Of a stretch of 64,000 nt of DNA, positions 32,779-34,965 are shown piece by piece. Origin of the DNA: Escherichia coli (GTDB lineage: Bacteria > Pseudomonadota > Gammaproteobacteria > Enterobacterales > Enterobacteriaceae); assembly GCF_003790525.1 (NCBI RefSeq), contig NZ_CP033635.1; one strand, given 5' to 3'. The notes beneath the pieces are model-generated. The model saw only the letters and a program-made list of their open reading frames with translations. It was not told where the DNA came from and did not search any database. Numbering within the stretch: the stretch's first letter is position 1; every line of letters starts with the position of its first letter. A program made the translations under genes and the position numbers.

Positions 32779-33063
32779 ACAAATTCCTTACTGAAAATAC
32801 TGCGCTGCACTATACGGGGTTAATAAAATAAAGCCAGCGATATTTAAGACCGCCGGACGGCTAAAATAAAAATTGCTTAATCTCAATTATCATGCGTTAA
32901 TAGCTGCGTCGGTTTGAAAGACAGACAGCATACAAAGTAGTTTACTAAAGCAGTTCTCATTATCAGGCATTATCCCCTTCTTTTGAGTCTCTCTCCTGAA
33001 CACTAAGTAGTTTCTGTATTAAAGCCCTGTTTGCCGAAAGGCCCAAAATGAAGGAAGTAAAAT

Positions 33064-33276
33064 ATGTCTAATAAAATGACTGGTTTAGTAAAATGGTTTA
33101 ACGCAGATAAAGGTTTTGGCTTTATCACTCCTGATGATGGCAGCAAAGACGTTTTCGTCCATTTCACCGCCATCCAGAGCAATGAATTCCGCACGCTGAA
33201 CGAAAATCAGAAAGTTGAATTTTCTATTGAGCAGGGGCAACGTGGTCCCGCGGCAGCGAACGTTGTTACGCTCTAA
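33064..33276 (+). CDS. cspG: Cold-shock protein CspG
   Basis: 70-aa [45 protein letters not shown]... Confidence 0.95.
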
Positions 33277-33475
33277 GGTTGCCGTTATTACTCAACATCT
33301 CCATTTCCGCTGTCCATGTTGTCATGGTTCACAGTACCGCACATCGGCATTCGATGTGACGGAGCGAAATCCTTTAGGGGCAAAGTGTATTTTTTGTAAA
33401 TCGACGATGATCACCTTTGATAACGTCGCGCTGCAAATACGCACTGAGCATGCGCCGCTGGATTTCACAAAATAA
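33215..33475 (+). CDS. Hypothetical small Cys-rich protein (CPCC...C..C zinc-ribbon-like), possibly ymcF; true start unresolved
   Basis: ORF in this frame ends at 33475, directly before a hairpin+T-run terminator (33481..33504), and contains CPCCHGS...CIFCKS. The first ATG at 33215 lies inside cspG, so the real start, if the gene is real, is probably downstream. Confidence 0.3.
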
Positions 33476-33680
33476 TATCAGGCTCCCTCGTGGAGCCTTT
33501 TTTATATCTGCCTTATTTTTCTTCAACGCTGTATGTATAGTAAGCGATAACCTGTTGATTATTGAATCTTTCGGGGAGATGGCTTATAACATTTCTTACC
33601 TGACCAGGGTACCGGGAACCAACACCTTACTGGCGTGTTGCTGTCTTTCAAGACCAGACGAGGTTAACAGTGAATATTGA
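33450..33680 (+). CDS. ymcE: Small protein YmcE
   Basis: 76-aa [34 protein letters not shown]... at the K-12 position; coding status is uncertain because a terminator lies within it. Confidence 0.6.
   Translation: MRRWISQNNIRLPRGAFFISALFFFNAVCIVSDNLLIIESFGEMAYNISYLTRVPGTNTLLACCCLSRPDEVNSEY
33481..33504 (+). terminator. Intrinsic terminator downstream of cspG and the small Cys-rich ORF
   Basis: ggctccctcgtggagcc followed by a T6 run; it lies inside the 5' part of the annotated ymcE frame. Confidence 0.7.
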
Positions 33681-33843
33681 AGAGTTAAAAAAACAAGCCG
33701 AAACGGAAATCGCCGACTTTATCGCGCAAAAAATCGCCGAGCTGAACAAGAATACAGGGAAAGAAGTCTCTGAAATTCGCTTCACCGCACGGGAAAAAAT
33801 GACCGGGCTTGAAAGTTATGATGTCAAAATCAAAATAATGTGA
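33670..33843 (+). CDS. gnsA: GnsA (suppressor of secG null, fatty-acid-related small protein)
   Basis: 57 aa from a GTG start: VNIEELKKQAETEIADFIAQKIAELNKNTGKEVSEIRFTAREKMTGLESYDVKIKIM. Confidence 0.85.
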   Translation: MNIEELKKQAETEIADFIAQKIAELNKNTGKEVSEIRFTAREKMTGLESYDVKIKIM

Positions 33844-33849
33844 TTTTGT

Positions 33850-33877
33850 GAACATCACCCCGTGCGAGGTGATGTTC
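33850..33877. terminator. Hairpin between gnsA and yccM (convergent)
   Basis: Inverted repeat gaacatcacc...ggtgatgttc. Confidence 0.6.
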
Positions 33878-33891
33878 CGCTTGTTGCTAAT

Positions 33892-34965
33892 TTAGTGACC
33901 AATCATTGGCGCTTGTGGAATTATGCGTCGGTACAATTCCTGCGGTACCGGGCTTTGCCATACTCCCGCATACATTGCGTAACCAATCACCGCAAACATA
34001 ATCCCCAGAACCAGTAGTGTCATTAACCAGCCAGACAACGCAAAAGCTTTTTTATTTGCCGCAGGTTTTTGCAGTGAAAAGGTCAATGTTGAGGCTACCG
34101 GACATGACTCTACGCAAGTCATACAGCCGGTACATTCCACTGTTCGTACCTGAATTAATTTATCGACCGGGATCCGCGATGGGCAATTTTTTGCGCATTT
34201 GCCACAGTCGATACAACTTTCGGCATTGCGACGAATCTTAAACGGTGATAATAGCGAAACCACGCCCATCAGCGCGCCATATGGGCAAAGATAACGACAC
34301 CAGGCATGGCGAATAAACAGGCTGGCAATCAGCAAAACGGTCACGCTGATTAATGTCGCGGTCCCCATATGGCGAAAGAAATCGAGCATTTTAACGTCCA
34401 TCACCACGCTGTAGGGCGACAACATAAAATAGTGAATCGCCTGAGCGGGCATCAATAACGCGATATAGAGAAAAAAACTCAACAGCAAATACTTCACGCC
34501 ACGCAGAGGAATATCCAGACAGCGGGGAAGGACACATTGCCGACCAAACAGTTTGTTACCGAGATCGCCGATTAATTCAGAAAGCGTACCAACCGGGCAT
34601 AACCATGAGCAAAAGGCCTTTTTGAGTAATAGACTGATGACGATAAAAGCGACCAATAACAGCATCGCGGCGGCGTGGACGGACGGTAACTGGCCTGTTG
34701 CAAGGCTATATTTCAGATTCATCAGACCGGCAATCGGTAGCCAGCCTTCGATGCCTCCTGGCCTGGCGACAAATGTCGTACTACCTGCCGTTTCGTAATA
34801 GCGCACCCAATACCAGAACGTGATGGCAATATAAATATTCATTGCCAACAGTAATAATTGCGTCGCTTTACGCCAGGTCGTGGCATTGCGCCAGTCATTC
34901 CACGGTAATTTGCCGCCCGTCGTGCCTGGCCGCCGCTGCCAGCGGGTTCTTTTTTTCTCTGCCAT
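33892..34965 (-). CDS. yccM: Membrane ferredoxin-type protein YccM (NapH/MauN-like, 4Fe-4S)
   Basis: 357-aa ORF with multiple CxxCxxCxxxCP motifs and transmembrane helices. Confidence 0.9.
   Translation of the reverse strand: MAEKKRTRWQRRPGTTGGKLPWNDWRNATTWRKATQLLLLAMNIYIAITFWYWVRYYETAGSTTFVARPGGIEGWLPIAGLMNLKYSLATGQLPSVHAAAMLLLVAFIVISLLLKKAFCSWLCPVGTLSELIGDLGNKLFGRQCVLPRCLDIPLRGVKYLLLSFFLYIALLMPAQAIHYFMLSPYSVVMDVKMLDFFRHMGTATLISVTVLLIASLFIRHAWCRYLCPYGALMGVVSLLSPFKIRRNAESCIDCGKCAKNCPSRIPVDKLIQVRTVECTGCMTCVESCPVASTLTFSLQKPAANKKAFALSGWLMTLLVLGIMFAVIGYAMYAGVWQSPVPQELYRRIIPQAPMIGH

Follow-up and report, generated by a model that had tools for sequence, protein, structure and literature searches.

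The Escherichia coli cspG–ymcF–ymcE–gnsA locus: a probable cold-shock operon end, a putative separate gnsA control region, and a ymcE frame that is probably not a protein gene

The Qin prophage of E. coli K-12 carries a paralog of the small gene ymcF, named ynfQ (b4724), between the cold-shock gene cspI and the gene gnsB. A 2026 review models YnfQ as rubredoxin-like, and cspG, cspH, cspI, ymcF and ynfQ change together in RNA-seq experiments (PMC11728337). A second small ORF of the prophage, ynfR (MKAPSGAFLL...), starts 2 nt past the ynfQ stop and runs through a hairpin and its T-run. The tagged protein YnfR-SPA has been detected and is strongly cold-induced (VanOrsdel et al. 2018, PMC6001520); ribosomes can thus cross such terminators on read-through transcripts. 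Lambdoid phages, too, carry the csp-ymcF-(ynfN)-gns cassette, which in their case follows the lysis genes.

Other described systems bear on individual parts of the chromosomal locus. Only two genes of E. coli, infC and pcnB, have been reported to start with AUU, and the discrimination of IF3 against AUU is reportedly weaker in the cold (PMC5499595). The infC junction reads UAA GGU AUU (PMC3592434). A Salmonella sRNA candidate, STnc220, shows homology to the terminal ~40 nt of ymcF together with the terminator that follows. Finally, ymcE-gnsA has been classed in the literature among the type II toxin–antitoxin (TA) pairs, YmcE being the proposed antitoxin of GnsA.

The window analyzed here is a 64,000-nt stretch of E. 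coli DNA (contig NZ_CP033635.1). Its positions 33000-33900 (901 nt) match E. coli SMS-3-5, among many other genomes, with 100% identity; the locus is present in 5,393 of 5,426 complete E. coli genomes. At the matched stretch, the RefSeq gene order is cspG, ymcF, ymcE, gnsA and yccM: this part of the window is the E. coli cspG–ymcF–ymcE–gnsA locus. For comparison, 80 ymcF loci were fetched, one genome per species, of which 39 are csp-linked and 41 have no adjacent csp gene; the selection tests rely on an alignment of eight Escherichia lineages. The features of the locus are the following.

32908 to 33330, plus strand: cspA-type cold-shock 5' UTR/mRNA element (Rfam RF01766), over the cspG leader and CDS
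33064 to 33276, plus strand: cspG CDS, 70 amino acids (ORF list, RefSeq annotation)
33274 to 33289, plus strand: cspG stop/ymcF start junction, TAAGGTTGCCGTTATT (sequence)
33287 to 33475, plus strand: ymcF CDS, 62 amino acids, ATT start, four-Cys CPxC...CxxC small protein (RefSeq/K-12 b4723)
33450 to 33680, plus strand: annotated ymcE ORF, 76 amino acids, judged a non-conserved reading frame
33480 to 33504, plus strand: intrinsic terminator of the cspG-ymcF transcript (stem-loop 33480-33498, T-run 33499-33504)
33505 to 33550, plus strand: variable spacer 3' of the terminator, with 37.8% variable sites among Escherichia lineages
33551 to 33669, plus strand: conserved gnsA upstream block, aligning with the upstream regions of Citrobacter gnsA and Qin gnsB
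33670 to 33843, plus strand: gnsA CDS, 57 amino acids, GTG start (annotation; Pfam PF08178)
33892 to 34965, convergent: yccM (ORF list)

We are confident that this layout represents the end of a two-gene cold-shock operon (cspG-ymcF and its terminator) followed by a separate control region for gnsA, and that ymcE is most likely not a functional protein gene. The analysis and the literature provide the identity of the genes, their conservation and patterns of selection, and the RNA 3' end observed in vivo, while the functioning of the locus is proposed as follows. The cspG gene is transcribed with its cspA-type leader, and ribosomes ending cspG would halt at a UAA lying within an AAGG Shine-Dalgarno-like (SD-like) motif. 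Initiation or re-initiation 10 nt further on, at a weak AUU, would then yield the 62-residue YmcF. Transcription ends 4 nt past the ymcF stop, at the hairpin 33480-33498 with a U-run to 33504, and gnsA would be served by its own upstream block (33551-33669, with promoter-like -35 and -10 elements and an SD) together with terminator read-through. The ymcE ORF would be a frame left open by chance across the 3' end of ymcF, the terminator, the spacer and the gnsA upstream block.

The cold-shock element RF01766 at 32908-33330 scores 157.1 bits for a gathering score of 78 (E = 1e-42), hence above threshold, and cspG exhibits a pN/pS of 0.083 in the Escherichia lineage alignment. The second gene was the object of an earlier note on this DNA, which had described a Cys-rich ORF at 33215-33475 and suggested that it might be ymcF. 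It is indeed ymcF, which the curated K-12 record lists as b4723 (“cold shock small protein YmcF”) and with an equal length of 189 nt. The protein matches Pfam PF23641 (“YmcF-like”) over residues 1-62 of 62 (164.4 bits, gathering 27; 6.5e-49); the Cys-rich ORF thus already has a gene name. The frame and the stop at 33475 proposed in that note are those of the gene, whereas its start is not: the TTG at 33215 is a mechanical ORF boundary inside cspG, and the start is the ATT at 33287. The gene model that the note called unresolved has long been settled for ymcF in curated annotation, and the remark holds for ymcE only. The window YmcF shares 97% protein identity with that of K-12, with few substitutions. 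NCBIfam contains no YmcF model, the sole match being a weak one to the ECs_2282 CxxC family (17.6 bits, cut-off 37).

A search of 5.8 billion proteins returned 137 clusters of YmcF homologues from ~25 enterobacterial genera (among them Escherichia, Citrobacter, Salmonella, Kosakonia, Klebsiella, Enterobacter, Leclercia, Raoultella and Kluyvera), with 58-80% identity. An exhaustive profile search yielded only 41 representative clusters at 50% identity, and the family is therefore narrow, though real. In an alignment of 50 sequences, there is no variation at residues C9, P10, C12, Q16, R18, S20, F36, C37, K38 and M41, and very little at C34 (kept in at least 90% of them). The core G-S-Q-Y-R / N-P-x-G-A-K-C-I-F-C-K is present in the window protein, together with the cysteines of the CPxC...CxxC motif. 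Among the eight Escherichia lineages, ymcF displays a pN/pS of 0.056, and its variable sites fall 3, 2 and 21 times at codon positions 1, 2 and 3 (chi-square p = 2e-6). Judged by this pattern of sequence conservation, ymcF is a genuine gene, conserved across Enterobacteriaceae. A literature search returned no direct translation evidence for either YmcF or the ymcE frame, and the locus is not mentioned in Nakahigashi 2016 or PIRT-Seq.

The AlphaFold2 model of YmcF, built with the 50-sequence alignment, has an overall pLDDT of 75, rising to ~90 for residues 11-40; an earlier run with 33 sequences (pLDDT 58) was set aside. In this model, short strands flank two Cys knuckles and the chain terminates with a C-terminal helix. 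Fold searches against solved structures gave no significant match, and a profile search of the PDB returned marginal CxxC motif matches only. YmcF is a putative zinc-ribbon protein, and its four cysteines may bind zinc. The most that can be said is that YmcF is a putative metal-binding small protein made alongside the Csp RNA chaperones.

The first codon of ymcF is an ATT at 33287, 10 nt past the cspG stop, and the TAA of cspG overlaps the AAGG motif. All 39 csp-linked loci share this arrangement: the aligned first codon is ATT (36 loci) or ATC (3 loci), and the csp stop is held in a TAAGG/TGAGG junction with a gap of 9-10 nt to ymcF. In twelve of these 39 loci, the frame from its closest preceding stop to the conserved core holds no ATG, GTG or TTG, and hence ATT must be the start there. 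The same junction is found in K-12 cspI-ynfQ (10 nt, ATT) and in phage Tritos. In the unlinked loci, an ATG preceded by a strong AGGAG occupies exactly the aligned start codon in 31 cases out of 41; Fisher's test on start codon and csp linkage gives p = 8e-14 (counting loci without phylogenetic correction). An Rfam scan at the gathering threshold of 12 unlinked loci found no cspA-type leader adjoining ymcF; the single Rfam match among them (L079) belongs to a csp gene located ~750 nt upstream. These observations suggest that the translation of ymcF may be coupled to that of csp via a deliberately weak start.

The start codon data also bear on whether the Cys-rich ORF could be a chance open frame, leaving ymcE as the sole real gene here. 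Such a reading could draw on a conserved N-terminus that lacks a canonical start codon, but stand-alone copies carry an ATG at the very same codon, and the strong purifying selection, the family-wide conservation and the invariant Cys ligands all speak against it. The comparative data refute it, and we give it practically no credence. Of the two frames, it is thus the Cys-rich one that the comparative data favor as the real product, as the earlier note had envisaged, and the same data argue against ymcE as a protein gene.

Immediately downstream of ymcF, a consensus scan identified a stem of 7 bp, including five G-C pairs, closed by a 5-nt loop (33480-33498) and followed by TTTTTT (33499-33504). 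The hairpin begins 4 nt past the ymcF stop. Its folding energy of -12 kcal/mol (z = -3.4) was not reached by any of 200 shuffled sequences. Term-seq in K-12 mapped 3' ends at 1051901 and 1051900 on the plus strand, labelled “internal, ymcE” (Adams et al. 2021, PMC7815308 supplement). With an offset of -1,018,397, these ends fall on the final bases of the T-run, window positions 33504 and 33503, and both are flagged “No” in a column that we read as the Rho-dependence call (PMC7815308). In other genera, 29 of the 39 csp-linked loci exhibit a hairpin and T-run starting -1 to 8 nt past the ymcF stop, built from at least six distinct stems (for example AGGCTCC, AGGCCCCC, AGCTCC, AAGGCCAG, CAGGTCAG and GCCTCGCA). 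The hairpin with its U-tract, the 3' end observed in vivo and the conserved position together establish this element as the working intrinsic terminator of the cspG-ymcF transcript.

The terminator had been placed in the earlier note at 33481..33504, directly 3' of the stop and within the 5' part of the ymcE frame. The hairpin and T-run are real and do lie inside the annotated ymcE CDS (~codons 11-19 of 33450..33680), the stem starting at 33480 and not at 33481, and the transcript 3' end that the note considered near 33505 is the one mapped by Term-seq. The Cys-rich ORF does not lie within ymcE: they share only 26 nt (33450..33475), read in different frames.

The presence of a mapped RNA 3' end raises the possibility, compatible with the two-gene operon model, that the ymcF 3' end and the terminator are released as a stable 3'-derived regulatory sRNA, a counterpart of Salmonella STnc220. 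The STnc220 family (Rfam RF02077) matches the homologous segment of two Salmonella loci (L014 and L024) with 102 bits, above the gathering score of 60, and that of Citrobacter with 49 bits. In the window, the match at 33433-33513 reaches 29.9 bits (E = 0.001-0.009), below the gathering score, and is explained by the plain homology of coding sequence plus terminator; moreover, no 5' processing site or Hfq data were found for E. coli. Such an sRNA appears improbable here.

Beyond the terminator, the spacer 33505..33550 displays 37.8% variable sites, as compared to 10-11% on either side, the value for the block 33551..33669 being 10.9%. This block contains a promoter-like TTGAAT (33562-33567), a 17-nt spacer and TATAAC (33585-33590), and the gnsA SD, GAGG, is located at 33660-33663. 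The sequence shared upstream of gnsA and gnsB consists of TTGATTATTGAAT, 17 nt, TATAAC/TATAAAT, and then CTGGCG...CAGACCAGAAGAGGT followed by the start codon. Based on the consensus and the conservation, 33551-33669 probably carries the gnsA promoter; a standard promoter scan did not report it, owing to the C at the end of the -10 hexamer, and no mapped gnsA TSS was found in the literature searched. RNAalifold analysis of the gnsA 5' UTR in nine loci did not reveal any conserved RNA structure (three pairs, no covariation), so the conservation is one of primary sequence. The gnsA gene itself has a pN/pS of 0.081. Suppression of fabA6 is the phenotype for which the locus was named sfa. The title of Sugai et al. 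2001 ascribes this suppression to yccL (gnsA).

The annotated ymcE ORF extends over the ymcF 3' end, the terminator, the spacer and this block, and it exhibits none of the coding signs of its neighbors. Among the eight Escherichia lineages (33 variable sites), its pN/pS is 0.83, and its variable sites are distributed 13, 9 and 11 over the three codon positions (p = 0.70), without codon periodicity. Frame-breaking indels are present in three of the eight lineages (L003, -2 and -1 nt; L005 and L036, -1 nt each), and the ATG is replaced in four (L004, L006, L007 and L036). No SD is found at a usable spacing from this ATG. The “synonymous” divergence of ymcE is 0.047, versus 0.20-0.24 in the flanking genes: this DNA is therefore constrained irrespective of codon position, since the C-terminal two-thirds of the ORF coincide with the conserved gnsA upstream block. 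The segment RLPRGAFF of the product is simply the translated hairpin.

The ymcE homologues form 28 clusters, all from Escherichia/Shigella except one partial “Salmonella” entry that is 100% identical to the query, and many of these clusters are odd fusions or truncations; tblastn detects ymcE in Escherichia loci only. The frame corresponding to ymcE meets a stop after 18-84 nt in eight of ten Citrobacter loci and in Qin, and gnsA/gnsB of Citrobacter, the Qin prophage and phage Tritos are not accompanied by any ymcE-like ORF. Taken together, these features make it most likely that ymcE is an Escherichia-only chance frame and probably no functional protein gene. This lack of coding signs weakens, in turn, the “YmcE antitoxin” label.

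An alternative would be that ymcE is a genuine young protein, specific to Escherichia and acting as the GnsA antitoxin, produced from terminator read-through transcripts, its stop overlapping the gnsA start and thereby coupling both genes. In E. coli sensu stricto the ORF is uninterrupted, as it is in E. albertii 3' of the lost ATG; its stop falls 8 nt into gnsA; the TA literature cites it as one partner of the pair; and dedicated models exist, which it matches well (Pfam PF15939, YmcE_antitoxin, full length, 184 bits; NCBIfam NF007379, 186 bits), although the PF15939 family amounts essentially to this one Escherichia ORF. In addition, the analogous terminator-spanning ORF ynfR has been detected as a tagged protein. 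Against this stand the pN/pS, the missing periodicity, the frameshifts and the loss of the ATG described above; a usable SD is absent, the mapped terminator lies in codons 11-19, and gns genes occur without such an ORF in Citrobacter, Qin and Tritos. We consider a young antitoxin gene unlikely.

In view of the YnfR precedent, some translation of ymcE or a role in cis is conceivable. In the latter case, the frame would be translated as a cis device only: ribosomes crossing the hairpin would prevent termination, so that both transcription and translation reach gnsA, whatever the peptide. The geometry lends itself to such a device, as the hairpin begins so close to the ymcF stop, within the ymcE frame, the end of which overlaps the gnsA start, and as the cold-induced ynfR crosses its own terminator in Qin. 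However, neither the ATG nor the frame of ymcE is conserved even within the genus, gnsA possesses its own conserved promoter-like block, and the window has no ATG after the ymcF stop equivalent to that of ynfR. This mechanism seems slightly less probable still than a young protein, and a non-coding ymcE is retained as the preferred reading.

Two elements of this picture were already known, the ymcF gene, which has been in curated annotation for years, and the mapped RNA 3' end. The present additions are the comparative case against a ymcE protein and the strict conservation of the AUU/AUC start at the csp stop. Their relevance lies mainly in annotation hygiene: ymcF encodes a bona fide, family-wide small protein of the cold-shock operon, while ymcE, which HMM-based annotation has spread to thousands of genomes and which is cited as an antitoxin, lacks any sign of coding constraint. 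Where ymcE-gnsA is taken for a TA module, or the 33504 end for an “ORF-internal” one, an ordinary operon terminator may have been misread.

A broader proposal combines two statements: ymcE and the YmcE-GnsA TA pair would be an annotation artefact laid over a terminator and the gnsA promoter/5' UTR, and the csp-UAAGG-N7-AUU junction would be a selected device that uses a deliberately weak AUU/AUC start to make the synthesis of YmcF depend on the translation of Csp; the fidelity of IF3, which is temperature-sensitive, might tune it. We advance this combination tentatively, as less likely than not. If true, ymcF and ynfQ would raise the number of AUU-initiated E. coli genes from two to four and would be the first example in a cold-shock operon. 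With its link to the csp stop, the conserved AUU start offers a small, testable lead on the dosing of minor cold-shock proteins.

Compared with the described systems, the locus shares with infC and pcnB a conserved AUU (or AUC) start and, with infC, the UAA GGU ... AUU junction after the stop of the upstream gene. The gap is 3 nt in infC and 10 nt in ymcF, and IF3 autoregulation is the established reason for the AUU of infC, whereas no regulator is known for ymcF. As to the type II GnsA/YmcE TA pair, the window ORFs match PF08178 and PF15939 over their full length, and the order is that of an antitoxin-like ORF followed by a toxin with overlapping ends; the “antitoxin”, however, is not under purifying selection, is frameshifted in congeners and is missing beside most gnsA/gnsB genes. 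STnc220 is an sRNA candidate of Salmonella, whereas no E. coli sRNA has been described at this locus. The Qin cassette cspI-ynfQ-ynfR-ynfN-gnsB differs by the presence of ynfR (21 amino acids, through the terminator) and ynfN between the terminator and gnsB, and by the lack of a ymcE-like ORF. The two have in common a csp gene, a 10-nt gap, an ATT-initiated four-Cys protein of 62 amino acids, a hairpin and T-run adjoining the stop of its gene, and, further downstream, a gns gene whose upstream block is homologous; the same cassette as in Qin is found in lambdoid phages such as Tritos.

The junction between csp and ymcF, the latter encoding a small four-cysteine protein, follows one pattern in the linked loci compared. 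The first ymcF codon is ATT or ATC in 39 of 39 csp-linked copies in the locus comparison, and the start lies 9-10 nt downstream of a csp stop that is itself embedded in TAAGG or TGAGG. In stand-alone ymcF, the same codon is ATG with AGGAG in 31 of 41 copies. In the literature, E. coli AUU starts are cited for infC and pcnB only (PMC5499595).

Csp/ymcF junctions
33274-33289, the window
about 2488-2503, loci L003-L064
6445-6458 (-), K-12 Qin prophage cassette (L083)
1488-1503, phage Tritos (L084)

At the other end of the gene, the Rfam sRNA candidate STnc220 (102 bits) corresponds in Salmonella to the ymcF homolog's 3' end together with the terminator, and it may be a 3'-derived RNA instead of an independent sRNA gene. 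Published K-12 Term-seq data also place a 3' end within cspG, at 1051591 (window 33194), in one condition.

STnc220 matches and corresponding segment
L014 2647-2726, Salmonella, Rfam match
L024 2647-2725, Salmonella, Rfam match
window 33433-33513, corresponding E. coli segment

In the Qin cassette, ynfR starts 2 nt past the stop of the ymcF paralog ynfQ, and its frame runs on through the hairpin and T-run; its tagged product is cold-induced (PMC6001520). 'APSGAFLL' in this product and 'LPRGAFFI' in YmcE are parallel, since each is a terminator read as protein.

L083 6189-6254 (-), ynfR, 21 aa

Upstream of gnsA, window 33551-33669 forms a conserved block common to Citrobacter gnsA and prophage gnsB. 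It comprises a promoter-like TTGAAT, 17 nt, TATAAC, then a conserved leader CTGGCG...CAGACCAGAAGAGG; no conserved RNA structure was found in this block. On the 3' side, a hairpin GAACATCACC...GGTGATGTTC lies within window 33850-33882, between the convergent gnsA and yccM, and a gnsA Term-seq 3' end maps to window 33882, without a clean T-run after the hairpin.

The annotation of these genes is inconsistent. RefSeq names ymcF products both 'cold-shock protein' and 'cold shock small protein YmcF', the former label also being carried by several YmcE clusters, and the gnsA product 'addiction module toxin'. Among nine phage records carrying a ymcF-like ORF, six leave it without annotation. In lambdoid phages, the csp-ymcF-ynfN-gnsB cassette is located directly downstream of endolysin and Rz.

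L084 1-2337, cassette region of phage Tritos

In Enterobacter hormaechei (L076 713-4196), a stand-alone ymcF with an ATG start is flanked on one side by a gene for an appC-like subunit of cytochrome bd and on the other by one for a regulator of the GntR/aminotransferase type. These surroundings are similar to the app region of E. coli, except that cspG, cspH and gnsA are missing.
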